From Prochlorococcus marinus str. NATL2A (GTDB lineage Bacteria; Cyanobacteriota; Cyanobacteriia; PCC-6307; Cyanobiaceae), in assembly GCF_000012465.1 (NCBI RefSeq), contig NC_007335.2, positions 1,050,001 through 1,082,000 of the forward strand: a DNA stretch of 32,000 nt. The letters run 5' to 3'. The notes under the pieces were generated by a model, which was not told the DNA's origin, did no database searches, and saw only the letters and a list, made by a program, of their open reading frames with translations. Positions 911-31,475 of the stretch are shown here, in pieces (positions within the stretch are counted from its first letter, which is position 1; each line of letters begins with the position of its first letter). A program made the position numbers and the translations under genes.

Positions 911-928
911 CTTAGGCGAGGTAGTGGC
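911..928 (-). promoter_or_regulatory. Degenerate copy of the GCnCTACCnCGACCGAAC upstream motif
   Basis: Minus-strand reading gccactacctcgcctaag lies upstream of the decayed module at 645..812. Confidence 0.25.
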
Positions 929-1641
929 ATCCCTAGTAGACATACATTCTACAAATTAAGATTTTGACTTTCCTAAAAGGGTGTATAGAACAAATAGGCC
1001 GGATTATTGATGATTGTTTTTATTGACCATGACAAATACATTTACCCCCCTTCCAAGCAGAGCATTTCTTCTTTTTGCATTTCTTCTTTTTCTTCTTATC
1101 TCCCATAAGAGTTGAAATTTATTATTTGATTTTAATAGATGGAAATTTGTCTACTTCGAGTACCAATTTTATCAGCAATAGGAAAAACACTGTAATAAAT
1201 AAGTTGAATTCAATTTTTATTGGTTGTAATACTCAAACAATAAAAAATCAAAAAACAGTAACCTCAACAGCCACAAAAATAGACTATGTCTAATTTCTAA
1301 ACATGTTTTTTGGATGATGTTTTGGCAAAACCTCCTTTTTTAATTGTCCTAAGAGGCAACATATGATCTGTCCTCCTTTTATCTCAGCCTTTATTTGAAA
1401 AAGTTCAATAGCCTTCTGCTAAGGCGAATTATTTCAAATTTTTCAAATCATAAAATCAAAAAATTCCAGAATGAAATCTGTCATTTTGTCTCACATTCCA
1501 TATAAAAAAGAAGGTGAGATAAAAAGTTACTGGCTAGTGAAATAGCTGCAATGATTGGTGTTACGACATAAAAAGTTCATATTGTTACATTAAATACAAT
1601 CAAATTTGATTCTTTGATACATCCTTCTATCCATCGACTTG

Positions 1642-4935: not shown

Positions 4936-4961
4936 ATTATTCTGCGTCTAAAGCAATAAAA

Positions 4962-4999
4962 AGGCCTCTTCCGTAATGACAGAGAAGAGGCCTTTTTTT
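4962..4999. terminator. Bidirectional intrinsic terminator
   Basis: aggcctcttc/gaagaggcct stem flanked by an A-run and a T-run. Sits between convergent 4654..4935 (+) and the hli operon (-). Confidence 0.8.
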
Positions 5000-5019
5000 A
5001 TTTGATTTGAAAGGTAGGA

Positions 5020-5145
5020 CTATACAATTCCTGGGATGATCCAGCCTGTAATTCCGTAATTAATGACTGCTGCAAAGAAGCCCATCATCGCTAGACGACC
5101 GTTCATTTGCTCTGCTGTTTTCCAGTAGTTAGTTTCTTTGTTCAT
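5020..5145 (-). CDS. hli: HLIP, 41 aa
   Basis: MNKETNYWKTAEQMNGRLAMMGFFAAVINYGITGWIIPGIV. The internal ATG of track ORF 5020..5205 is the likely start; it overlaps the upstream stop as TAATG. Confidence 0.85.
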   Translation of the reverse strand: MNKETNYWKTAEQMNGRLAMMGFFAAVINYGITGWIIPGIV

Positions 5146-5291
5146 TACACAACACCTGGGATAATTTGACCTGTTGTTAGATATGCACCGATGAGTGCCC
5201 AGCATCCAACAAAAGCTGCGTAGCCATTGAGTCTTTCTGCAATGACTTTGCCTTCTTCTACTCTTGGAGTTTCAGTCGTTTGGTTTTTCAT
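5145..5291 (-). CDS. hli: HLIP, 48 aa
   Basis: MKNQTTETPRVEEGKVIAERLNGYAAFVGCWALIGAYLTTGQIIPGVV. Below the track cutoff; TAATG overlaps at both ends. Confidence 0.8.
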   Translation of the reverse strand: MKNQTTETPRVEEGKVIAERLNGYAAFVGCWALIGAYLTTGQIIPGVV

Positions 5292-5410
5292 TAAACAACA
5301 CCTGGGATAAGTTGACCGGTTGTTAGGTAGATACCTGTTAGAAGAACGAATGCCATCATGGCTGGTCTGCCGATGCTTCTTTCTAGGATTGTTTTGTTAG
5401 ATGGTTGCAT
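5291..5410 (-). CDS. hli: HLIP-like, 39 aa
   Basis: MQPSNKTILERSIGRPAMMAFVLLTGIYLTTGQLIPGVV. Truncated N-terminus but retains the GR.AM....TGQ.IPG core. Confidence 0.7.
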   Translation of the reverse strand: MQPSNKTILERSIGRPAMMAFVLLTGIYLTTGQLIPGVV

Positions 5411-5444
5411 TGTTTTTAATAGTTACTTATTAGTAGTTATTGGT

Positions 5445-5660
5445 TTAGAAAATTCCAGGAATGATTTGACCTGTTGTGAAGTATGAAACCAAAAGGCTGA
5501 CCATCCCGATCATTGCCCAACGGCCATTTGTCTTCTCAGCTTCTTCTGGATAGCTGGTGTAGTCCTCTACAAGCTGTGGCTGTGTTTCACGGCCAAAGAT
5601 GTTTTGCTTGCCGTACTCAGTGATTACCTGAGAAGAAGCTGCGTTGGAAGAAGTTGTCAT
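5445..5660 (-). CDS. hli: HLIP, 71 aa (first gene of the four-gene operon)
   Basis: ORF track; ...EKTNGRWAMIGMVSLLVSYFTTGQIIPGIF. Confidence 0.9.
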   Translation of the reverse strand: MTTSSNAASSQVITEYGKQNIFGRETQPQLVEDYTSYPEEAEKTNGRWAMIGMVSLLVSYFTTGQIIPGIF

Positions 5661-5675
5661 TACTGGGATTGCGTT

Positions 5676-5693
5676 GATGTGAATGAATGTAAA
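5676..5693 (-). promoter_or_regulatory. HLR1-like direct repeat (candidate RpaB site)
   Basis: Minus strand reads TTTACATT-ca-TTCACATC, compared with the remembered consensus (G/T)TTACA(T/A)(T/A)-n2-repeat. It lies 15 nt upstream of the hli ATG at 5660. An identical copy is at 23660..23677. Confidence 0.4.
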
Positions 5694-5715
5694 GTATGAA
5701 TTTTCTAAATGAAAG

Positions 5716-5732
5716 ATACGGTCGGGTACGGC
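5716..5732 (-). promoter_or_regulatory. Upstream motif instance (hli operon side)
   Basis: Minus strand reads gccgtacc-cgaccgtat, about 55 nt upstream of the hli ATG. An identical copy is at 23700..23716. Confidence 0.35.
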
Positions 5733-5855
5733 TTCTTCTAATAATCAATAAAAATAAGTCTCAAACACTAAATACAACAACTACTTAGAGAGATATTGAT
5801 CCAATGATTAGATCTATTGATGACTCTAATAAGTATAAATAGCCCGAACTGGATA

Positions 5856-5898
5856 GCCCTACTTCAACCGTCCTACTACTATTAAAAGCTTCTATTAT
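5856..5898 (+). promoter_or_regulatory. Upstream motif plus -10 box for the 36/54-aa micro-ORF pair
   Basis: gccctacttcaaccgtcc, then tactactattaaaag, then TATTAT at 5893..5898, 45 nt before the ATG at 5943. An identical copy is at 23840..23882. Confidence 0.45.
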
Positions 5899-5942
5899 GT
5901 TTTATTCATCTTTTTTAAATCTACTAAACCAGACTTTTAGTC

Positions 5943-6053
5943 ATGCTTGCAATCAACAAAACTACTGCTGCAAAACTAATCATTCTCTGGAATCTTCCTG
6001 CACTACTTTTATTAGCTAGTGCTTATGAAGTTGGTACTACCGTATTTGCTTAA
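5943..6053 (+). CDS. 36-aa membrane peptide (LWNLPALLLLA family)
   Basis: MLAINKTTAAKLIILWNLPALLLLASAYEVGTTVFA. Paralogs at 16312..16425 and 22090..22200. Confidence 0.55.
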   Translation: MLAINKTTAAKLIILWNLPALLLLASAYEVGTTVFA

Positions 6054-6059
6054 CTCACA

Positions 6060-6224
6060 ATGACATCATCTAAAAACAGCCCAAAAAATTGGTCCGAGTG
6101 GAACAACGCGAAGCATTTCACTGATTATTCAAGAGATTCAGGCACAGGCAAATTTGTTCGCTTTACGATTGCTGCCTTACTCTTCGTTCCTGTTGGGTTC
6201 CTTGCTTACATGACAACGATCTAG
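6060..6224 (+). CDS. 54-aa membrane peptide
   Basis: MTSSKNSPKNWSEWNNAKHFTDYSRDSGTGKFVRFTIAALLFVPVGFLAYMTTI. Starts 6 nt after the preceding ORF. A decayed paralog is at 645..812. Confidence 0.5.
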   Translation: MTSSKNSPKNWSEWNNAKHFTDYSRDSGTGKFVRFTIAALLFVPVGFLAYMTTI

Positions 6225-6315
6225 GTTATTAAAGCAACCTAAAACAATTGATTGAATATTTTGCTTCTACTAACCGTAACAGATAAAGTTTTAATTACCA
6301 CTTAAAAGGAAGCGT

Positions 6316-7714: not shown

Positions 7715-8137
7715 TTAATAATCAATATTTGATTGCCTATTCCTTTTTAATTCACCTCTTTTCTTCTTTGACTCAATTCTCCTCCTCTGTGATGAGCGAG
7801 TAGGTATTGTCTCCCTTCTTGTCTTTGGAGGTGGCTTTAAAAGATCTCGTAAGGTTGAAGTAAGTCTATTTATAGCTAATTGTCTATTTTGATATTGTGT
7901 TCTTTTATCTTGAACAGCTATACAAATACAACCATTAGAAAGCTTGACTTCATCCTGAATTGAGATTCTAAATTTCTGGTATGGAGTTAAAGTTTTTGAT
8001 TCAGATACGTTAAATACAATTTCAGCTCGACTGTCTGCCTTATTTACGTTCTGTCCACCAGCTCCTGATGATCTAGAGAATCTCCACTTTATTTCATTAC
8101 CTGGTATTTCAAGATTAGAATTAATCCTAAGATTCAT
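7715..8137 (-). CDS. arfB: Peptidyl-tRNA hydrolase ArfB (YaeJ-type ribosome rescue factor), 140 aa
   Basis: GGQ motif (SGAGGQNVNK), 140-aa length and a basic C-terminal tail, as in E. coli ArfB. Confidence 0.85.
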   Translation of the reverse strand: MNLRINSNLEIPGNEIKWRFSRSSGAGGQNVNKADSRAEIVFNVSESKTLTPYQKFRISIQDEVKLSNGCICIAVQDKRTQYQNRQLAINRLTSTLRDLLKPPPKTRRETIPTRSSQRRRIESKKKRGELKRNRQSNIDY

Positions 8138-8973: not shown

Positions 8974-10056
8974 ATGACCACCATTCAGCAGCAGCGTTCT
9001 TCGTTGCTCAAAGGTTGGCCACAATTCTGCGAGTGGGTTACTTCCACCAACAACCGTATCTATGTCGGTTGGTTCGGTGTTTTGATGATCCCTTGCCTTC
9101 TTGCGGCAACAACTTGTTTCATCGTTGCATTTATCGCTGCTCCTCCAGTTGATATCGACGGTATCCGTGAGCCAGTAGCTGGTTCATTCATGTATGGAAA
9201 CAACATCATTTCTGGTGCTGTTGTTCCTTCAAGTAACGCTATCGGCCTTCACTTCTACCCAATCTGGGAAGCAGCAACTCTTGATGAGTGGCTATATAAC
9301 GGTGGCCCTTACCAGCTTGTAATCTTCCACTTCCTTATCGGTATCTCTGCATACATGGGACGTCAGTGGGAGCTTTCATACCGTTTAGGTATGCGCCCAT
9401 GGATCTGTGTTGCTTACTCAGCTCCTGTATCAGCAGCTTTCGCTGTATTCCTTGTTTACCCATTCGGTCAGGGTTCATTCTCTGATGGTATGCCTCTAGG
9501 AATTTCTGGAACATTCAACTTCATGTTCGTTTTCCAGGCTGAGCACAACATCTTGATGCACCCATTCCATATGGCTGGTGTAGCAGGTATGTTCGGTGGT
9601 GCTTTGTTCTCTGCAATGCATGGTTCTTTGGTTACTTCATCACTTATCCGTGAGACCACAGGACTTGATTCACAGAACTACGGTTACAAGTTTGGACAAG
9701 AAGAAGAGACATACAACATCGTTGCAGCTCATGGCTACTTCGGTCGTTTGATCTTCCAATATGCAAGCTTCAACAACAGCCGTAGCCTTCACTTCTTCTT
9801 GGCTTCATGGCCAGTGATTTGTGTTTGGTTGACATCTATGGGCATCTGCACCATGGCGTTCAACTTGAACGGTTTCAACTTCAACCAGTCTGTAGTTGAT
9901 ACTTCAGGCAAGGTTGTACCAACCTGGGGTGACGTACTTAACCGTGCAAACCTTGGTATGGAAGTAATGCACGAGCGTAATGCTCACAACTTCCCACTTG
10001 ACCTAGCAGCTGCTGAGTCTACTTCTGTAGCTCTTGTTGCACCTGCAATCGGTTAA
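8974..10056 (+). CDS. psbA: Photosystem II D1 protein, 360 aa
   Basis: Full-length D1: ...[23 protein letters not shown]..., with HNFPLDLAA followed by a C-terminal extension. Confidence 0.98.
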
Positions 10057-10078
10057 GTCTTTAACTTGATTTTCTTAA

Positions 10079-10105
10079 AGCCCTCTTTTTGAGGGCTTTT
10101 TTTTT
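10079..10105 (+). terminator. psbA intrinsic terminator
   Basis: agccctc-ttttt-gagggct followed by T9. Confidence 0.85.
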
Positions 10106-10261
10106 GACCTTTTAGGTTTAGTAAAATAAAAGGAGAGGAACAAGAAATTCTTTATATGGCGTTGTAACTGTTAAGTCCTATATCTCAACCTCTATGCAAA
10201 ACCTATTAGAGGTTTATAAAGAAATAACTGTTTACTACTCATCTTCACTTGGCTCCGCGAA

Positions 10262-10888
10262 ATGAATATATCTAAATTTCTATTAATTGATGCTGTATTA
10301 GTAATTGCAGCAATCCCACTTATTTTTTTTGTTTCAGGTGGCAAAAGAAAGTCTCCATTTTTACGAAGTTCAAGTAAAGAAGAATTATTGAGAAAGGCCT
10401 CAGGCAAACTCCCTGACAAAGAAAAGCTTAGAGAACTTGAAAAATTTGCAACAGAACAAGGTAGTGGAATTGAATTTGATTCAATTATTGGAATTTGGAA
10501 ATTTATATCAATATGGAAAAAAGACATCGACGAAGAAGATCCCATTTTTAGTTCATTGCTTAGAGTCTTCTCTGCAAAAATAGAGTTCAGGAAAGACCTT
10601 TTAACTAAAAATTCAACTGAATTGTCTGTTATCGCCTCAATTCAATTTGGACTGTTCAGTATAGGGTTTTCAGGAACTGGTTATTTAAAAGGAAAACAAC
10701 CTTTATTACCATTCTGTTTAAATCTAATTGAACTCAAAGCGGGTTCAGATATTTTATTGAGAAGATCTCTTAAAGAACAGGAAGACAAGGAGAAGTCTTT
10801 TTTTGCCATGATTGCATTAGAAGAAAACGAAGAATTACTTTCAGCCAGAGGTCAAGGAGGTGAAGTCGTGATTTGGTTGAAAGATTGA
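10262..10888 (+). CDS. Hypothetical protein (208 aa), possibly fibrillin-like
   Basis: ORF track. N-terminal TM; GIWKF... near the start of the domain and ...SARGQGGEVVIWLK at the C-terminus loosely recall PAP/fibrillin motifs. Confidence 0.6.
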   Translation: MNISKFLLIDAVLVIAAIPLIFFVSGGKRKSPFLRSSSKEELLRKASGKLPDKEKLRELEKFATEQGSGIEFDSIIGIWKFISIWKKDIDEEDPIFSSLLRVFSAKIEFRKDLLTKNSTELSVIASIQFGLFSIGFSGTGYLKGKQPLLPFCLNLIELKAGSDILLRRSLKEQEDKEKSFFAMIALEENEELLSARGQGGEVVIWLKD

Positions 10889-10997
10889 ATTCAAGAGCAA
10901 AGAAGATCAGATTAATCTTTATAGTCATTCATGAATTTTGTATAACCATCTAGTTGGACGCATTTAAATTGAATACTGTTTAAAATTGAACTTTTAA

Positions 10998-11843
10998 ATG
11001 CCCGAAGGACCAGAGATTAGACGAGCTGCAGATAAGATAAGTAAAGTTTTAATTGGCGAAGAAATTATTGAAAGTAATTTTTACTATGAACGAATAAAGG
11101 AGAAAGAGGAGATAGTCAAAAACCAAAATATCAAAGACATAACAACTAGAGGAAAGGCAATGCTTATCCGATTCAAGAATAATTGGTCAATGTATAGCCA
11201 TAATCAGTTATATGGAAGATGGACAGTAAATTTAAATACAACAAAAGTCAAATCAAGAAGAGCTCTTAGAGTAGTTTTCACAACAAATAAACATGCTGTT
11301 AGATTGTGGTCAGCGACAGATATTGATTTAATTCCAACAGATGAAGAGAATGAACATTCATTCTTAAAAAAAATTGGGCCTGATGTCCTGAGTGAATCTT
11401 GCAGTTTAGATTTAATAGAAGAAAGATTAACGTCAACAAGTTTCCATAAAAAGAAAGCCTCAACTTTGATGCTTGATCAGGCTTTCTTTGCTGGATTAGG
11501 TAACTATCTTCGCTCAGAAATCTTATTCGATGCAAAAATACATCCAGATGATAGACCGTTTGATCTTGATAAAACGAAAATTACCCAATGGGCAAAATCA
11601 ATAAAAAACATCTCACAGTTAGCCTATAAAACTGGAGGTTTTACAGTCTCAAAATCATTAGCAGATAGAAACAAAGAGAATGGAGAGCCAAGAAGATCTT
11701 ATAGACATGCTGTTTTCATGCGACACCAATATGAATGTTTAAATTGCAAGGATCGTATAGAAAGGAAATGGTATGGGAAAAGGAAAGTTGATTATTGTCC
11801 GAGCTGTCAAATTCAAAGAGGTAAAATCAAACCCACCAAATAA
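10998..11843 (+). CDS. nei: Endonuclease VIII (Fpg/Nei-family DNA glycosylase), 281 aa
   Basis: N-terminus MPEGPEIRRAADK, SHNQLYGRW, LDQAFFAGLGNYLRSEILF and a C-terminal C-x2-C...C-x2-C zinc finger all parallel E. coli Nei. Confidence 0.9.
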   Translation: MPEGPEIRRAADKISKVLIGEEIIESNFYYERIKEKEEIVKNQNIKDITTRGKAMLIRFKNNWSMYSHNQLYGRWTVNLNTTKVKSRRALRVVFTTNKHAVRLWSATDIDLIPTDEENEHSFLKKIGPDVLSESCSLDLIEERLTSTSFHKKKASTLMLDQAFFAGLGNYLRSEILFDAKIHPDDRPFDLDKTKITQWAKSIKNISQLAYKTGGFTVSKSLADRNKENGEPRRSYRHAVFMRHQYECLNCKDRIERKWYGKRKVDYCPSCQIQRGKIKPTK

Positions 11844-11924
11844 TGGTTTTTTTAGCACTTGGCGAATAACAAAAATTTAAGACAACATATGTTTTTGATG
11901 AACATATATAAAAGGTAGACGTAC

Positions 11925-12398
11925 TTAATTGTTTATAGGATTAAAAAAATCGGCTATCAAAAGATCCTCTCTTTTTAGCAACGCAAACGTTGTCCCCTTA
12001 TAGCCTCTACATACTCGCAATTTATCAGTCAAAACGGTTGTATCTAGCCAACCCGTTTGAGCTGTTTTAATTTCCGATAAAAAGACCATATTTTTACCAA
12101 ACACCTGTGGTCCTATTATCCCTGCTTTTTCAAAGGTAACGTTTATGCGTTTTTGATCAATAATATCCAACTTTGCCAAGATATTAGTCGATAAAAGTTT
12201 GCCAAGAAATCCCTTAGGGCTCAGAAAGTTAAGTGCTCTGCTTTTGTCTAGGTCTAATATTTGAAAATTATTTAATAACGGAGAATAATTTAGAACAGGA
12301 GATTTCGAGCTACTCCACCTCAATTCCCAGACACCCATAAGTCTCTCAAATTGATTTGGTATGTCTACAGCAGATTCAAATTCCGATAATTTAATCAA
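11925..12398 (-). CDS. PAP/fibrillin-family protein (157 aa)
   Basis: GVWELRWSSS... and the C-terminal WLDTTVLTDKLRVCRGYKGTTFALLK match the fibrillin signature (YLD.dlRi.RG..G..FvL). Confidence 0.7.
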   Translation of the reverse strand: MIKLSEFESAVDIPNQFERLMGVWELRWSSSKSPVLNYSPLLNNFQILDLDKSRALNFLSPKGFLGKLLSTNILAKLDIIDQKRINVTFEKAGIIGPQVFGKNMVFLSEIKTAQTGWLDTTVLTDKLRVCRGYKGTTFALLKREDLLIADFFNPINN

Positions 12399-16311: not shown

Positions 16312-16425
16312 CTAAACGATTACTGAAGAACCAACTTGGAATGCACCAGCCAAAAGAAGTAAAGCAGGTAGGTTCCAAAGCACTAGAACTTTGAGAGCAG
16401 TCTTTTTATAGGTTGCAGCAGTCAT
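16312..16425 (-). CDS. 37-aa membrane peptide (LWNLPALLLLA family)
   Basis: MTAATYKKTALKVLVLWNLPALLLLAGAFQVGSSVIV. Confidence 0.5.
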   Translation of the reverse strand: MTAATYKKTALKVLVLWNLPALLLLAGAFQVGSSVIV

Positions 16426-16512
16426 TTTGATTTTAGGAGGAAAGAATTTCAGAGAAATACAGACCTAAATCTCTGATGGAACAAAGTTAAGAAAGTACTT
16501 GCTTTGAGTGAG

Positions 16513-16530
16513 GTTCGGTCGGGGTAGGGC
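16513..16530 (-). promoter_or_regulatory. Upstream motif instance
   Basis: Minus strand reads gccctaccccgaccgaac, then ctcactcaaag, then TAACTT, about 90 nt upstream of the ATG at 16425. Confidence 0.4.
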
Positions 16531-16569
16531 TAACCGTGGAATAAATTTTTCTTATGGATCTGAAATTCT

Positions 16570-21156: not shown

Positions 21157-21372
21157 GTGACTGAAATTAATTCTCAAGTGTTAATTCAATCAGAGAAACC
21201 CGTGGACTTTAATACCACCAAAACACAAGAAGGTTTTTTATCTAAAATATTTTCTCTTATGAATAAGAACCCCAATTACAAAATGTTGGGAGCACTTGGA
21301 ATGATGCTAGTGAATTTTTCTGTCTGCGTAACAATCGCTAATTGGCTAAAACATTCAAGTCTGGTTTCCTAA
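21157..21372 (+). CDS. Hypothetical protein (71 aa, GTG start)
   Basis: ORF track only; C-terminal hydrophobic segment. Confidence 0.3.
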   Translation: MTEINSQVLIQSEKPVDFNTTKTQEGFLSKIFSLMNKNPNYKMLGALGMMLVNFSVCVTIANWLKHSSLVS

Positions 21373-21401
21373 GGGGCAAAAGGTTTAGTCATAATGAGAG
21401 C

Positions 21402-21668
21402 ATGGCACTAGATCAACTCAAGGCTTTTCTTACAGAGCTTCAAAAAAATAAAGAATTACTCAATGCCATAAGAGTTGCTGCTACCGCGAATGAAATTGCA
21501 GAAATAGCATCGGGATTTGGTTATCAATTTTCTGGTAATGAATTAAAAGCAGCCTCAAAAGAGAATATTCCTGGTGTAAAAATCAAAAAACAAGACACAT
21601 CTCCCTCTTATAGCTTTGGTGAGAGTGGAATAGATCCAAATGAAAAAAATTATAAAAGTGGTAACTAA
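21402..21668 (+). CDS. Nif11-like leader-peptide domain protein (88 aa)
   Basis: MALDQLKAFLTELQKNKELLNAIRVAATANEIAEIASGFGYQFSGNELKA matches the Nif11/N11P leader pattern (LKAFLEKv..d..L...l......e.v.iA...Gf.f...eL). The track ORF begins at an upstream TTG. Confidence 0.7.
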   Translation: MALDQLKAFLTELQKNKELLNAIRVAATANEIAEIASGFGYQFSGNELKAASKENIPGVKIKKQDTSPSYSFGESGIDPNEKNYKSGN

Positions 21669-22089: not shown

Positions 22090-22200
22090 TTAAACAATTA
22101 CAGAAGAAGCAACATCAAAAGAACCTGATGCAAGTAGAAGAGCAGGGATGCAGAAAAGAGCTAGGAACTTAGCTGCTGAAGAATTATCGATTGAAGTCAT
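22090..22200 (-). CDS. 36-aa membrane peptide (LWNLPALLLLA family)
   Basis: MTSIDNSSAAKFLALFCIPALLLASGSFDVASSVIV. Confidence 0.5.
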   Translation of the reverse strand: MTSIDNSSAAKFLALFCIPALLLASGSFDVASSVIV

Positions 22201-22294
22201 TTCAGGTAGGGGGTGATGATTTTTCGGTGATACAGGGGTTGAACATTCCATTCACCGATGTGACAAATATAAAAAGTAGTCTTTAAGTAGTGAT

Positions 22295-22450
22295 GTTCGG
22301 TCGAGGTAGTGCTTTCCACTCCCTTCGTACAAATGGGAGAAGAGGACGAACGTCTAGCAGGTAGGGCCCATGAAACTCTTTACTCCTTTCACCATTTCAG
22401 AAAAAGACAACTGAGATCGTTGGAGAGTTATAACTAACAGAAGAAGAGAA
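22295..22450 (+). repeat. Noncoding repeat family, copy A
   Basis: Shares gtagtgctttc, a CUCCC/GGGAG hairpin with an ACAAAU loop, actcctttcaccatt and aaaaagacaa..g.gatc.tt....a.tt..aactaac with copies B and C. Its first 18 nt, read on the minus strand, are the upstream motif for 22090..22200 (-10 TATATT at 22266..22271). Confidence 0.7.
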
Positions 22451-22804: not shown

Positions 22805-23003
22805 TTGGAATTTATTAACGACTAAAGATTCTATAAAACATTTGAAAAGTCTTGCCGTAAAAAATAGAACACGACGGTAATGCAGTTATCTTCCTTCAGG
22901 TAACTAAATTTGAAATTTTCATCAAAATTTTCTAAAGCAATAAAAAGGCCTCTTCCGTAATGACAGAGAAGAGGCCTTTTTTTATTTGATTTGAAAGGTA
23001 GGA

Positions 23004-23129
23004 CTATACAATTCCTGGGATGATCCAGCCTGTAATTCCGTAATTAATGACTGCTGCAAAGAAGCCCATCATCGCTAGACGACCGTTCATTTGCTCTGCT
23101 GTTTTCCAGTAGTTAGTTTCTTTGTTCAT
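23004..23129 (-). CDS. hli: HLIP, 41 aa (copy of 5020..5145)
   Basis: Identical sequence at offset +17,984. Confidence 0.85.
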   Translation of the reverse strand: MNKETNYWKTAEQMNGRLAMMGFFAAVINYGITGWIIPGIV

Positions 23130-23275
23130 TACACAACACCTGGGATAATTTGACCTGTTGTTAGATATGCACCGATGAGTGCCCAGCATCCAACAAAAGC
23201 TGCGTAGCCATTGAGTCTTTCTGCAATGACTTTGCCTTCTTCTACTCTTGGAGTTTCAGTCGTTTGGTTTTTCAT
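23129..23275 (-). CDS. hli: HLIP, 48 aa (copy of 5145..5291)
   Basis: Identical sequence at offset +17,984. Confidence 0.8.
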   Translation of the reverse strand: MKNQTTETPRVEEGKVIAERLNGYAAFVGCWALIGAYLTTGQIIPGVV

Positions 23276-23394
23276 TAAACAACACCTGGGATAAGTTGAC
23301 CGGTTGTTAGGTAGATACCTGTTAGAAGAACGAATGCCATCATGGCTGGTCTGCCGATGCTTCTTTCTAGGATTGTTTTGTTAGATGGTTGCAT
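23275..23394 (-). CDS. hli: HLIP-like, 39 aa (copy of 5291..5410)
   Basis: Identical sequence at offset +17,984. Confidence 0.7.
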   Translation of the reverse strand: MQPSNKTILERSIGRPAMMAFVLLTGIYLTTGQLIPGVV

Positions 23395-23428
23395 TGTTTT
23401 TAATAGTTACTTATTAGTAGTTATTGGT

Positions 23429-23644
23429 TTAGAAAATTCCAGGAATGATTTGACCTGTTGTGAAGTATGAAACCAAAAGGCTGACCATCCCGATCATTGC
23501 CCAACGGCCATTTGTCTTCTCAGCTTCTTCTGGATAGCTGGTGTAGTCCTCTACAAGCTGTGGCTGTGTTTCACGGCCAAAGATGTTTTGCTTGCCGTAC
23601 TCAGTGATTACCTGAGAAGAAGCTGCGTTGGAAGAAGTTGTCAT
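23429..23644 (-). CDS. hli: HLIP, 71 aa (copy of 5445..5660)
   Basis: ORF track protein identical to 5445..5660. Confidence 0.9.
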   Translation of the reverse strand: MTTSSNAASSQVITEYGKQNIFGRETQPQLVEDYTSYPEEAEKTNGRWAMIGMVSLLVSYFTTGQIIPGIF

Positions 23645-23926
23645 TACTGGGATTGCGTTGATGTGAATGAATGTAAAGTATGAATTTTCTAAATGAAAGA
23701 TACGGTCGGGTACGGCTTCTTCTAATAATCAATAAAAATAAGTCTCAAACACTAAATACAACAACTACTTAGAGAGATATTGATCCAATGATTAGATCTA
23801 TTGATGACTCTAATAAGTATAAATAGCCCGAACTGGATAGCCCTACTTCAACCGTCCTACTACTATTAAAAGCTTCTATTATGTTTTATTCATCTTTTTT
23901 AAATCTACTAAACCAGACTTTTAGTC

Positions 23927-24037
23927 ATGCTTGCAATCAACAAAACTACTGCTGCAAAACTAATCATTCTCTGGAATCTTCCTGCACTACTTTTATTAGC
24001 TAGTGCTTATGAAGTTGGTACTACCGTATTTGCTTAA
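23927..24037 (+). CDS. 36-aa membrane peptide (copy of 5943..6053)
   Basis: Identical sequence at offset +17,984. Confidence 0.55.
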   Translation: MLAINKTTAAKLIILWNLPALLLLASAYEVGTTVFA

Positions 24038-24043
24038 CTCACA

Positions 24044-24208
24044 ATGACATCATCTAAAAACAGCCCAAAAAATTGGTCCGAGTGGAACAACGCGAAGCAT
24101 TTCACTGATTATTCAAGAGATTCAGGCACAGGCAAATTTGTTCGCTTTACGATTGCTGCCTTACTCTTCGTTCCTGTTGGGTTCCTTGCTTACATGACAA
24201 CGATCTAG
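24044..24208 (+). CDS. 54-aa membrane peptide (copy of 6060..6224)
   Basis: Identical sequence at offset +17,984. Confidence 0.5.
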   Translation: MTSSKNSPKNWSEWNNAKHFTDYSRDSGTGKFVRFTIAALLFVPVGFLAYMTTI

Positions 24209-24438
24209 GTTATTAAAGCAACCTAAAACAATTGATTGAATACTATTTAGACTGGTTTTTATTGGTCTGTAAGCTTTTTGAGTTGTTCAAGTTAATAAAA
24301 AAATTTAAAGTCTAAACCTGAGAGAAGAAGGGGGTCAGATTGACTGAAGATTGAGAAAATAATAATCAGAATTTTCTCTCAAACAATCGAATTTAGAGAT
24401 TTTATTAACTTTACTCATCAGAGAGTTGATTAAAACAA

Positions 24439-27581: not shown

Positions 27582-27806
27582 TTATTTTTGTTCTTGATCT
27601 TCTTGTTCCCATGCTTGAAATTGGAAATAAAATATTGCGCAAATCGCTACGAAGATTGAAAGCAGTCCCGCCCAACCCAAAAACTTTTGTTCGGTAAAAA
27701 GATTAGTCAGCGATGACTGTTCGACATAACTAGCATCCATCTCGTTTTGAATATTCCCAGTCCATTCGTCAGCAGCAAAATAAATATTCCTAAGTAAATC
27801 AAGCAT
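27582..27806 (-). CDS. Hypothetical membrane protein (74 aa from the ATG; the track extends to a GTG at 27896)
   Basis: C-terminal TM segment GWAGLLSIFVAICAIFYF. The GTG-extended version would contain a terminator hairpin, so I prefer the ATG at 27806. Confidence 0.5.
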   Translation of the reverse strand: MLDLLRNIYFAADEWTGNIQNEMDASYVEQSSLTNLFTEQKFLGWAGLLSIFVAICAIFYFQFQAWEQEDQEQK

Positions 27807-27835
27807 TTCAGCACTGGTACTTAATAAGAAGACTA

Positions 27836-27865
27836 GTAAAAAGAAAACCCTCACTGTGGAGGGTT
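27836..27865 (-). terminator. Orphan intrinsic terminator (sRNA end or leader attenuator)
   Basis: Minus strand reads AACCCUC-CACAGU-GAGGGUU followed by UUCUUUUU. There is no ORF upstream of it for about 400 nt except a 23-aa one. Confidence 0.6.
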
Positions 27866-28024
27866 GGCTAAAATTGTGTGAAGGGAAAGACCACACTTTT
27901 TAATTTAACGAACTAAGGAAAAGGATTTCACCAGCCATCCCCTGATCTGACTGAAGCCAAACAAACCTTTCAATACTAACTTCCAACGTATTAATTCCTT
28001 AAAAAGAAGTTCTCTTAAACTGAA

Positions 28025-28260
28025 GTTTGGTTGAAGTAGTGCTTTCTACTTTCTTCTTACAAATAGGAGGAGTAGATCAAAGGCGAAGCAAAGAGTGGTT
28101 ATAAGACAATCAACACTCCTTTCACCATTCCTCAAAAAGACAATTGCGATCTTTGCAAGATTAAAACTAACAATAGAAAAGCAACTGAAAATCGATTCTT
28201 AGATAAATTGTTTAAACTCAACTAAAGAGACAGTTTTGATTTTGTTTTCGACTGACCTCG
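28025..28260 (+). repeat. Noncoding repeat family, copy B
   Basis: Aligns with copy A over about 155 nt and with the reverse complement of copy C over about 235 nt, including ttgattttgttttcgactgacct at the far end. Confidence 0.7.
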
Positions 28261-29646: not shown

Positions 29647-30405
29647 TTGAGTGCACCTTTATTTTCAAGTGTTAGGTCTGGAGATACCATTCTGGTTGGC
29701 GAGAATGAAATCTGCAAAGTTCTTTCATTTACTGGAGGTTCTAGAGATCCAGACGCTCCCTCACTATTCCAAGTGGCGAATGTTGATACAGGTGAAATTA
29801 AGCACGTTCATGCTGCTGAAGTGAAAGAGATAGTTTGCAGATGGGAGAAGGAAAGACTGAATCTTCCTGCTGAATTGCCACTAAGTAACTTCCTTCCAAC
29901 GGTTGAAAACTATGAGAAAGAAGTAAGTAAAAAGAAATTGAGAGGCAATGAGGAAAGCAAAGATTGGAAAGACCTACATCATATAACTGAACCTGAAGTC
30001 CATCCAAAGAAATATTTTGACCAGATAGAGGTGTTTGGATCCATAGAGAAGCGTTCATGGATCCATGGTCCAAAGTCACCAAAAAGTTTCTTTATAAATG
30101 AATCAAAATGTCCTGTAAGAAACCCCTTCGACAGAATCAATGGCTTAGTAAGGGAAGAGGGAGTAAAAATGTTTGATGGTTTGGTTTGACAGAGTTGGCA
30201 TGAAGATGGAAATATTCCAAAAGAAGCTAAAGAGTGGTTTGATGCAAGAGTGGAAGATTTTATAGCTGGAACAGATATTGATCTTGTTTGTAATTGTCGA
30301 AGATTTAGAGGTCAAGATGATTCTGTAGGTCTACAAGCTAAACACCCTTGCGATTGTCATGGCTATACATTGAAAAAATATATTGAATTTTTAGCTGACA
30401 ATTAG
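29647..30405 (+). pseudogene. N-domain plus DUF4326-like fusion gene interrupted by one in-frame TGA
   Basis: The frame stays open from 29647 (TTG) to the TAG at 30403 except for a TGA at 30187..30189. Downstream it reads QSWHEDGNIPKEAKEWFDARVEDFIAGTDIDLVCNCRRFRG...PCDCHGYTLKKYIEFL, collinear with its paralogs. Confidence 0.7.
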
Positions 30406-30429
30406 GAACAAGAATTTCCTTTGCCTAGT

Positions 30430-30446
30430 CTTCAAGCCATAGACCA
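30430..30446. repeat. 17-bp direct repeat, left copy, flanking repeat C
   Basis: cttcaagccatagacca, versus ctttaagccatagacca at 30709..30725 (16 of 17). Confidence 0.6.
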
Positions 30447-30448
30447 CG

Positions 30449-30686
30449 GACTGACATTTTCAGGTCAGTCGAAAACAAAATCAAATCTCTGCCTATAAAG
30501 GTTTCTAAAAAGGTTATCTAATAATGGATTCTCAACTGCTTTTCTTTTTTTAGTTTTAATTCTGCAAAGGTCGTAATTGTCCTTTTTTGGGATAGTGAAG
30601 GGAGTAAATAGCTTCATAAACCTCTTATGGCTACACCTATGGTCTACTCCTTCTTTGTTCTGGTTAGGAGTAGGAGAACACTACTA
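30449..30686 (-). repeat. Noncoding repeat family, copy C (inverted)
   Basis: The reverse complement aligns with copy B over about 235 nt. It has an 8-bp CUACUCCU/AGGAGUAG hairpin. Confidence 0.7.
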
Positions 30687-30708
30687 AAATGAGAATAAAA
30701 GATTAACT

Positions 30709-30725
30709 CTTTAAGCCATAGACCA
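30709..30725. repeat. 17-bp direct repeat, right copy
   Basis: See 30430..30446. On the minus strand it reads tggtctatggcttaa, which is the 3' end of the HTH-like gene family. Confidence 0.6.
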
Positions 30726-30751
30726 GCTTCGAACAGAAGTTGAACTAGATC
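30711..30751 (-). pseudogene. Remnant Z of the small HTH-like gene (3' end only)
   Basis: The reverse complement gatctagttcaacttctgttcgaagctggtctatggcttaa matches copy Y at about 30 of 41 positions without gaps. Confidence 0.45.
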
Positions 30752-30872
30752 TCTAGATCAGCTGGAAAGGTTTTAGGAAACTCTCATCACTTCAATCATA
30801 TTTTTACAAAAACTCCATAAACTCAAAAACTTCTCAATAAGAGGATAATATTTTTAGGATTATTCTAGAAAT

Positions 30873-31475
30873 TTGATTTATCCAAAGACATTACAACTTG
30901 AATCTGGAAGTGATCTTCTTAATAGTCTTCAAGCTCTGGCGACAAAAGAAAATAAATTAGGATATGTTTTGAGTGTAGTAGGTAATTTATCCATAGCTAA
31001 ATTTCAATGTCCGGGGAAAGGAGAAGCTACTACAATTAAAAATCATCTAGAAATAATAGGCTTGAATGGAACAATATCTCCAAACAAATGTCATCTTCAT
31101 ATAAGTCTTTCAGATGGAGAATGCAAGGTATGGGCCGGTCACCTAGAGGAGGGGACGATAATACTAAAAGGCGCTGACTTATTAATAGGATTTCTTGATG
31201 AGACTATAAGTAAAAAAGAAGTCAATACTAATCAGCAAGCAGTTGAAATATTTATACTTCCAGATTGTCCATGGTCCTCGAGAGCTGTTCGGATGCTAAG
31301 AACATTACAAATACCACATGAAATAAAAGTGATCGAAAATGATGAAGATTTTAATTCCCTTCATAAAAGAAGTAATTATTCGAGCTTTCCTCAAATTTTC
31401 ATAGACGAAGAATTTATCGGTGGCTACACAGAATTATCTGAACTTCATGCTTCAGGCAAATTAAGCAGTTTTTAA
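30873..31475 (+). CDS. PPC/DUF296 domain fused to a glutaredoxin-like domain (200 aa)
   Basis: N-terminal half: LGYVLSVVGNLS...CHLHISLSD..G.VWAGHLEEG (PPC pattern). C-terminal half: CPWSSRAVRML...SFPQIFIDEEFIGGYTEL (Grx fold, with CPWS in place of CPYC). TTG start per the track. Confidence 0.7.
   Translation: MIYPKTLQLESGSDLLNSLQALATKENKLGYVLSVVGNLSIAKFQCPGKGEATTIKNHLEIIGLNGTISPNKCHLHISLSDGECKVWAGHLEEGTIILKGADLLIGFLDETISKKEVNTNQQAVEIFILPDCPWSSRAVRMLRTLQIPHEIKVIENDEDFNSLHKRSNYSSFPQIFIDEEFIGGYTELSELHASGKLSSF

Follow-up and report, generated by a model that had tools for sequence, protein, structure and literature searches.

A 23-bp promoter-proximal box precedes micro-ORFs and a candidate RNA family in genomic islands of LLI Prochlorococcus

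What is the sequence that recurs, always in the same orientation, before a series of very small genes in an island of Prochlorococcus marinus NATL2A, and what might it do there? To our knowledge, Prochlorococcus has very few transcription factors, and the control of its hypervariable island genes is little understood. Island genes of Prochlorococcus respond to light stress and phage infection. The DNA that raised the question, a stretch of 32,000 nucleotides called the window here, is a Prochlorococcus genomic island of 34% G+C with many tiny ORFs, an extra psbA (8974-10056), a duplicated four-gene hli operon and two further hli genes. Three stretches (8974-12398, 21342-21668 and 29647-31475) encode psbA, a Fapy-DNA glycosylase (mutM-like), PAP-fibrillin, a Nif11-domain peptide, DUF3104 and a PCC-glutaredoxin fusion, and these other contents of the island suggest light and oxidative stress functions. 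The window is 99.995% identical to JBJBCH010000002.1 (GCA_047285905.1), and two more distant, homologous islands served as comparators: L006, at 92-96% identity, and L001 (strain MIT 0916), at 75-90%.

The initial annotation of this DNA described an 18-nt motif, and every instance that it listed was recovered at its position. Alignment of the instances reveals that the 18-mer is the core of a 23-bp consensus, GGWWAGCMCTACYYCRACCGWMC, which extends it on the 5' side by five bases, GG(A/T)(A/T)A, and has a sharp boundary there. The motif is genuine, and chance falls far short of explaining it: when up to 3 mismatches are allowed, GCCCTACYYCRACCGWMC has 6 matches in the window compared to 0.01 expected from 100 shuffles. 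One of these six, at 7849-7866, has 3 mismatches, lies inside an ORF with an RF-1 domain and is probably due to chance. Using an HMM built only from other genomes, with the window left out, we found exactly five window sites at E<1e-9, which are four distinct copies and one duplicate (Table 1). An exact 1.3-kb duplication (4947-6260 = 22931-24242, copies spaced 17,984 nt) carries the end of the hli operon region, both types of box and the micro-ORF pair. The window copies all point toward an ORF or an RNA, and copy B has orthologous copies in L001 and L006. For copy A, alignment with relatives indicates that TATGTT (5896-5901), 22-23 nt past the box, is the likelier of the two overlapping -10 candidates. 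The decayed copy that had been reported at 911..928 also proved genuine, as its ortholog in L001 is a perfect box before an intact 54-aa ORF, both of which are degraded in the window. Decayed boxes go with a degraded downstream gene (911-933) or with truncation (30670-30700).

Table 1. Boxes, promoter elements and downstream features in the window.
Feature	Position	Strand	Sequence	Remarks
Copy A	5851..5873	+	GGATAGCCCTACTTCAACCGTCC	E=2.6e-10; fronts the 36-aa and 54-aa micro-ORF pair
Copy A, -10 region	5893..5901	+	TATTAT and TATGTT	overlapping
Micro-ORF operon of copy A	5943..6224	+	MLAINK..LWNLPALLLLA..	first ORF 36 aa, 5943-6053
Second ORF of copy A operon	6060-6224	+	MTSSKNSPKNWSEWNN..	54 aa; no Pfam/NCBIfam match
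Copy A duplicate	23835..23857	+		exact; inside 1.3-kb repeat 22931-24242; operon 23927-24208
Copy B	16513..16535	-	GGTTAGCCCTACCCCGACCGAAC	E=6.3e-10; -10 TAACTT at 16484-16489
Copy B targets	16312-16425	-		37-aa ORF; small ORFs downstream
Copy C	22295..22317	-	GGAAAGCACTACCTCGACCGAAC	E=2.9e-14; -10 TATATT at 22266-22271
Copy C targets	22090-22200	-		36-aa ORF; two further small ORFs
Copy D	28025..28047	-	AGAAAGCACTACTTCAACCAAAC	2-3 mismatches; weak -10; E=6.4e-10
Copy D transcript (putative)	27835-27995	-		~190-nt sRNA-like region with terminator; degenerate RNA-family member
ORF after copy D RNA	27582-27806	-		74 aa
Decayed box	911..933	-	GGGATGCCACTACCTCGCCTAAG	before pseudogenised copy of the 54-aa ORF
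Truncated remnant	30670..30700	+	..GAACACTAC, then taaaatg	end of third copy of the upstream element
hli-type variant box	5715..5735	-	GAAGCCGTACCCGACCGTATC	duplicate 23699-23719 (-); one nucleotide shorter than main box
HLR1-like direct repeat	5676..5693	-	TTTACATTcaTTCACATC	duplicate 23660-23677 (-); candidate RpaB site
HMM site, copy A	5846-5903	+
HMM site, copy A duplicate	23830-23887	+
HMM site, copy B	16482-16537	-
HMM site, copy C	22264-22320	-
HMM site, copy D	27998-28046	-

The anatomy of the region around the box was read from an information profile of 50 promoters from many genomes, made non-redundant on the downstream sequence. Positions 1-23 carry very high information, with 15 of the 23 essentially invariant, and there is zero information 5' of position 1 and past position 53. 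Moderate information is present at positions 26-28 (TCA g/t), 34-38, 43-48 (a T-tract plus A) and 51-52; the CACTACTTAAAG-like block that had been noted after the motif is accounted for by the weaker conserved positions 26-28 and 34-38. Positions 47-52 read TAnnTT and form an information peak, the -10. Of 93 genome instances, 81 have a TAnnnT that starts 21-25 nt past the box, 58 of them at exactly 23 nt, compared to 8.7% of random control positions, and so do 103 of 108 metagenome instances; these frequencies are biased upward outside the window because the loci were chosen for carrying the motif. As originally described, the motif is promoter-proximal and always directed toward a downstream small gene, or else an RNA, and it is followed by a -10 at fixed spacing.

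This architecture suggests a promoter. If transcription starts approximately 7 nt past the -10, from which the start site is estimated, the box would lie at about -58 to -36 and be centred around -47. It abuts a weakly conserved hexamer at the -35 position, wTCAkT, which is followed by the T-tract and the -10, and box, weak hexamer, T-tract and TAnnTT together form a module of ~52 bp. The proposal that the motif replaces a -35 box does not agree with this layout, as the box ends at about -36, next to the hexamer. An alternative sigma factor, also proposed, is unlikely, since a -35 formed by the 3' end of the box would stand too far, at 23 nt, from the -10. Within the box profile we found no dyad or inverted symmetry; the best internal similarity is that of direct sub-repeats offset by 6 and 11 nt (r ~0.6), which is modest and was noticed post hoc. 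The box is G+C-rich and holds ~40 bits; for the site of a transcription factor it is unusually long and invariant, and sites of weak or intermediate strength are rare. Three co-varying lineages of the box, GGTTAGCCC..GTCC, GGTTAGCCC..CCCGACCGAAC and GGAAAGCMC.., track paralogy, and at one locus (L070) the promoter is chimeric, an hli-type upstream region being joined to a family-1c downstream region.

The distribution of the box is narrow. In 596 Gb of bacterial and archaeal genomes the exact 23-mer pattern matched 68 loci, every one of them in Prochlorococcus, where by our own arithmetic ~2 matches would be expected by chance. The matching genomes AG-402-M23 and AG-402-L09 belong to the LLI clade (Berube et al., PMC6370341), and the complete genomes among the matches are of 1.9 Mb. 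Marine metagenomes contain at least 120 matching loci, and the viral contigs of IMG/VR gave 0 matches to the main box. Three core-genome loci, 63 kb in total, have no box even at 4 mismatches, and the five exact copies in MIT 1012 all lie within 488-568 kb, an 80-kb stretch of a 1.9-Mb genome. The module is specific to the LLI (NATL-like) clade and is found above all in the hypervariable islands of its genomes. No published account of it came up when the literature was searched by topic and by motif sequence. Neither a report on the LLI hli expansion (PMC6102989) nor one on the sRNAs of NATL2A (PMC7368042) mentions a motif of this kind, and in the NATL2A supplementary tables of the latter the short motif fragments that we looked for, and 'hli', are not present.

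What follows the box is in nearly all cases an ORF of 30-75 aa with one hydrophobic helix, whose start codon lies on the same strand, 61-94 nt past the end of the box. The largest target group is the LWNLPALLLLA family, and when LWNLP/FCIPAL micro-ORFs were found by peptide pattern, 84 of 84 had the box with at most 3 mismatches. Including this family, the first downstream ORFs fall into at least eight recurrent families unrelated in sequence, and Pfam and NCBIfam gave no match for the downstream micro-ORF families. Homologs of the 54-aa protein occur in close Prochlorococcus relatives only, and the short ENA contigs that encode it are metagenomic, not transcriptomic. For the 74-aa protein, the best 120 of 418 matches all have at least 77% identity, and one match that was traced belongs to an AG-402-series Prochlorococcus single-cell genome. 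Among the paralogs in the window the box is 74-83% identical, the ORFs 67-70% at the nucleotide level and the UTR 48-64%, in keeping with the initial annotation, which held that the motif is better conserved than the coding sequences. Its view that co-duplication of promoters is only part of the story is also borne out, the box fronting at least eight sequence-unrelated ORF families as well as an RNA family.

This RNA family is a candidate new one. Directly after the box comes a conserved structured RNA that contains AGAGCGAGTAAC.., then a variable hairpin and then a second hairpin, GGGGACAG..CTGTCCC. Its members are ~100-190 nt long with a GAGC/GCTC stem, often with a terminator after them, show one compensatory change (A-U to G-C) in the hairpin and are found at L007, L012, L025, L041, L138 and about 25 other loci. 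The family is absent from Rfam, and a search of the window against Rfam gave no family at gathering score. At 18 related loci the only Rfam hits were Yfr13, Cyano-1, Glutamine-II, tRNA and the cobalamin riboswitch, none of which directly follows the box; the nearest checked element, a Glutamine-II, lies ~560-600 nt downstream of it. Glutamine-II is the Rfam family formerly named the Downstream-peptide motif. Glutamine-II riboswitches, Yfr13 and Cyano-1 do occur near motif-bearing units in the same islands, with conserved synteny (L017, L012, L007 and L013). Separately, the 5'-UTR of copy C contains a hairpin, CGGTGAATGGAATGTTCAACCCCTGTATCACCG (22225-22262, minus strand), that is found in 12 of 93 related instances and is common to promoters of different ORF families; over all loci, 12 of the 13 occurrences of its string ATGTTCAAYCC are at a fixed 47-50 nt past the box.

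Whether the hli genes belong to the same set is less clear. The initial annotation had the motif front the hli operon, and this is true only of a diverged variant: the variant box, upstream of the four-gene hli operon (5660 to 5020), agrees with the main box at 18 of 21 positions with one gap allowed, and the main-box HMM does not recognise it (E=15). Matches as loose as this occur at ~0.59 per 32 kb in Markov shuffles. The variant box is kept in 15 loci, always before an hli operon, and its promoter-proximal position and correct orientation make it plausible that it is homologous to the main box. The two other hli genes of the window (22599+ and 2761-2907-) have neither a box of either type nor an HLR1-like repeat. 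That hli genes may be co-regulated with the micro-peptides is a hypothesis, since only the diverged variant is present at the operon and the other two hli genes have no copy.

A second element of the hli promoter resembles a known light-response site. HLR1 consists of two (G/T)TTACA(T/A)(T/A) repeats 2 nt apart, and RpaB controls hli genes. The HLI iModulon of MED4 is enriched in RpaB motifs (bioRxiv 10.64898/2026.04.15.718746). In the window an HLR1-like direct repeat, also conserved in related loci, stands between the variant box and the start codon of the hli operon. It agrees with HLR1 at 14 of the 16 specified positions, a level at which the window count is 6 compared to 4.1 expected, not above chance alone. 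The repeat would cover part of the likely -10, as one would expect of a site for repression by RpaB. The box and the HLR1/RpaB system are alike in that both elements are found at light-stress genes, the HLR1-like repeat in the hli promoter being downstream of the variant box. The 23-bp box itself differs from HLR1, however: it is G+C-rich, its repeat offset is 11 nt rather than 10 nt and it has no TTACA units, and we rejected an identity with HLR1 on the last of these grounds.

We think it fairly probable that the box is an activator site, forming the upstream half of a ~52-bp promoter module of LLI islands. A sequence-specific DNA-binding protein, encoded outside the islands, would occupy the box and recruit RNA polymerase to an otherwise weak promoter, in the geometry of a class I/II activator. 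The module would drive short transcripts that encode 30-75-aa single-helix peptides, as well as sRNA-like RNAs, and the motif-bearing promoters together would constitute one regulon. Protein binding, activation and co-regulation are what we infer from the arrangement of the DNA; the box probably marks a co-regulated gene set. Direct sub-repeats without a dyad are more in line with a winged-helix response regulator that binds in tandem than with a dimer that binds a palindrome. When the ORFs of the fetched loci were searched by phmmer with E. coli PhoB, LexA, NarL and Fur and with lambda Cro, no homolog and no response regulator was found, and E. coli CRP retrieved a single CRP-family gene, ~800 nt beyond a terminator on one metagenome contig.

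Shared promoter operators are a familiar kind of element, among which the box stands out by being long, invariant, restricted to islands and tied to micro-ORF and sRNA cassettes. Class I/II activator-dependent sigma-70 promoters come close to it, for example cyanobacterial ones of the NtcA type or ones in which a site of the OmpR/PhoB family abuts the -35. Like the module, such promoters combine a conserved site centred around -47 and ending at -36, a weak -35 and a canonical TAnnnT -10 at a fixed distance, and many promoters share one site, but the box is longer and far less degenerate than typical activator sites. NtcA binds GTA-N8-TAC centred near -41.5. A comparison by eye with NtcA GTAN8TAC, HLR1, the Pho box, the LexA box and CIRCE gave no sequence match: GGWWAGCMCTACYYCRACCGWMC has TAC but no GTA 8 nt upstream, and of all these sites only the Pho box and one half of CIRCE show a partial likeness, which is limited to one class of the motif.

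An alternative that we regard as unlikely is that the module is a mobile promoter cassette without a dedicated regulator, the 23-mer being kept by concerted evolution or by a general contact with RNA polymerase. Putative mobile promoters and promoter propagation in prokaryotes were reportedly described by Matus-Garcia, Nijveen and van Passel in 2012. The box resembles these in that one promoter sequence stands before non-homologous genes within a genome; it differs in that the module is confined to the islands of one clade, contains a sharply bounded 23-bp sub-element that appears to be under strong selection and is tied to micro-ORF/sRNA cassettes. The near-identity of the 23-mer and its three lineages tracking paralogy are in line with a cassette, the L070 chimera demonstrates that recombination has occurred at the box, sites of weak or intermediate strength are few, and a recent spread or gene conversion of one cassette would also fit a long invariant box. 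Yet the flanks carry no information even in close paralogs, and gene conversion would need to have stopped precisely at both ends of the module. Between genomes whose flanks are only 75-86% identical, the box is kept at 21-23 of 23 positions. The box is also G+C-rich, unlike the A+T-rich UP elements, and boxes decay along with the downstream gene. The sharp module edges, the retention across diverged flanks and the loss with decay of the downstream gene indicate selection on the box and not co-duplication alone. Its near-invariance, the three lineage-like variants and the L070 chimera show that the module also spreads as a unit. Under the activator-site reading, duplication and recombination would have placed the module before unrelated genes and purifying selection would keep it there.

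Far less probable is that the box is a Pho box, made of tandem 8-bp PhoB/SphR sites with 3-bp linkers, and that the island peptides and sRNAs are a phosphate-starvation regulon. The GGTTA class can be read as three units with an 11-nt period, GTTAGCCC-tac-CTCAACCG-aac-(a/t)TCAgTnn, which agrees with the direct-repeat similarity at offset 11, and the units resemble the cyanobacterial consensus CTTAACCT (PMC1906773). Box and cyanobacterial Pho box (Su et al. 2007) thus have in common tandem direct units, an 11-nt period by the -35 position and a partial likeness to that consensus. The unit matches are nevertheless poor, 5-6 of 8 positions and in one class only; the GGAAAGC class has no first unit, and the linkers, TAC and AAC, hardly vary and equal the units in conservation, which is not so in real Pho boxes. 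The box is G+C-rich, unlike the published Pho boxes of NATL2A and MED4, which are A+T-rich. Its downstream genes are unannotated micro-ORFs and RNAs with no phosphate-acquisition gene among them, and a published prediction of the NATL2A Pho regulon does not mention hli genes.

We give equally little credence to the box being a site of site-specific recombination or cassette exchange (integron attC or att-like) whose link with promoters is incidental. It does border, on their 5' side, small gene cassettes that have been shuffled among genomes, it is confined to hypervariable islands and the L070 chimera joins two types of region at it. Such a site would not be expected to keep a fixed 23-nt spacing to a -10 and a strict orientation toward a gene; there is, moreover, no dyad or inverted-repeat structure, no tRNA or tRNA fragment is present in the window, the breakpoints of the rearrangements between the window and L001 are not at boxes, and the box is absent from viral contigs. 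An integron attC was rejected specifically because inverted symmetry is lacking and the box lies 5' of the cassettes with a fixed -10, and a tRNA-derived att repeat because in the window ARAGORN detected no tRNA and there was no match to an Rfam family, and because the box has no T-arm features. A phage origin, or a promoter for a phage polymerase or factor, was rejected as well, as there is no similarity to the phage collection searched in addition to the 0 viral-contig matches of the main box, and the fixed -10 argues for the host sigma-70 polymerase rather than a phage polymerase; the variant box has one viral-contig match, apparently in coding sequence, which we judged to be chance. Metagenome contigs end at the box 18 times compared to ~12 expected, an unconvincing excess that led us to discard assembly breaks at the box. 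The least probable reading is that the box acts as RNA or on the opposite strand, either as the promoter or 5' leader of a divergent gene (the MKLFTPF..CDLC ORF or the hli operon) or as a small-RNA target, which ~20 GGAAAGC-class copies with a divergent ORF and strong ribosome-binding site 54-56 nt from the box and the back-to-back position of copy A and the hli promoter might suggest, but at many copies a divergent gene is missing, conservation of the module is confined to the downstream side, and the box is upstream of the predicted transcription start and so outside the sense transcript.

Returning to the activator-site reading, a bolder form of it, which we put forward only tentatively and consider rather doubtful as a whole, is that the box is the operator of a clade-specific regulon. 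A single factor, which might be an orphan response regulator, would induce the island micro-membrane-peptides, the small RNAs and, via the variant box, the multicopy hli operon, as part of a light-shock/stress programme that sets the LLI clade apart. If this is correct, genes newly arrived in the islands could join the regulon by means of the portable 52-bp module. The box is in any case a testable handle: it can serve as bait for the regulator and define a micro-peptide/sRNA regulon, and it lets one ask how new island genes gain regulation. It also flags several unannotated families of small proteins and RNAs in a highly abundant ocean phototroph.

Two further features next to the boxes were observed. 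Directly upstream of copy A is a 48-nt block, AATGATTAGATCTATTGATGACTCTAATAAGTATAAATAGCCCGAACT (5803-5850, plus strand; duplicate 23787-23834), that is almost invariant in more than 10 genomes, in contrast to the variable sequence beside it; within it are a 12-codon ORF and a string, TATAAATA, resembling a T4 late promoter. GGAAAGC-class boxes are accompanied by a divergent family of small ORFs, MKLFTPFTIPKKDNCDLCR.., of 29-50 aa with a strong ribosome-binding site, the ATG lying 54-56 nt from the box. Its copies in the window (~22370-22414 and ~28090-28260 on the plus strand, 30462-30605 on the minus strand) are truncated or have no start codon, and the family is intact in L010, L042, L052, L074 and other loci.
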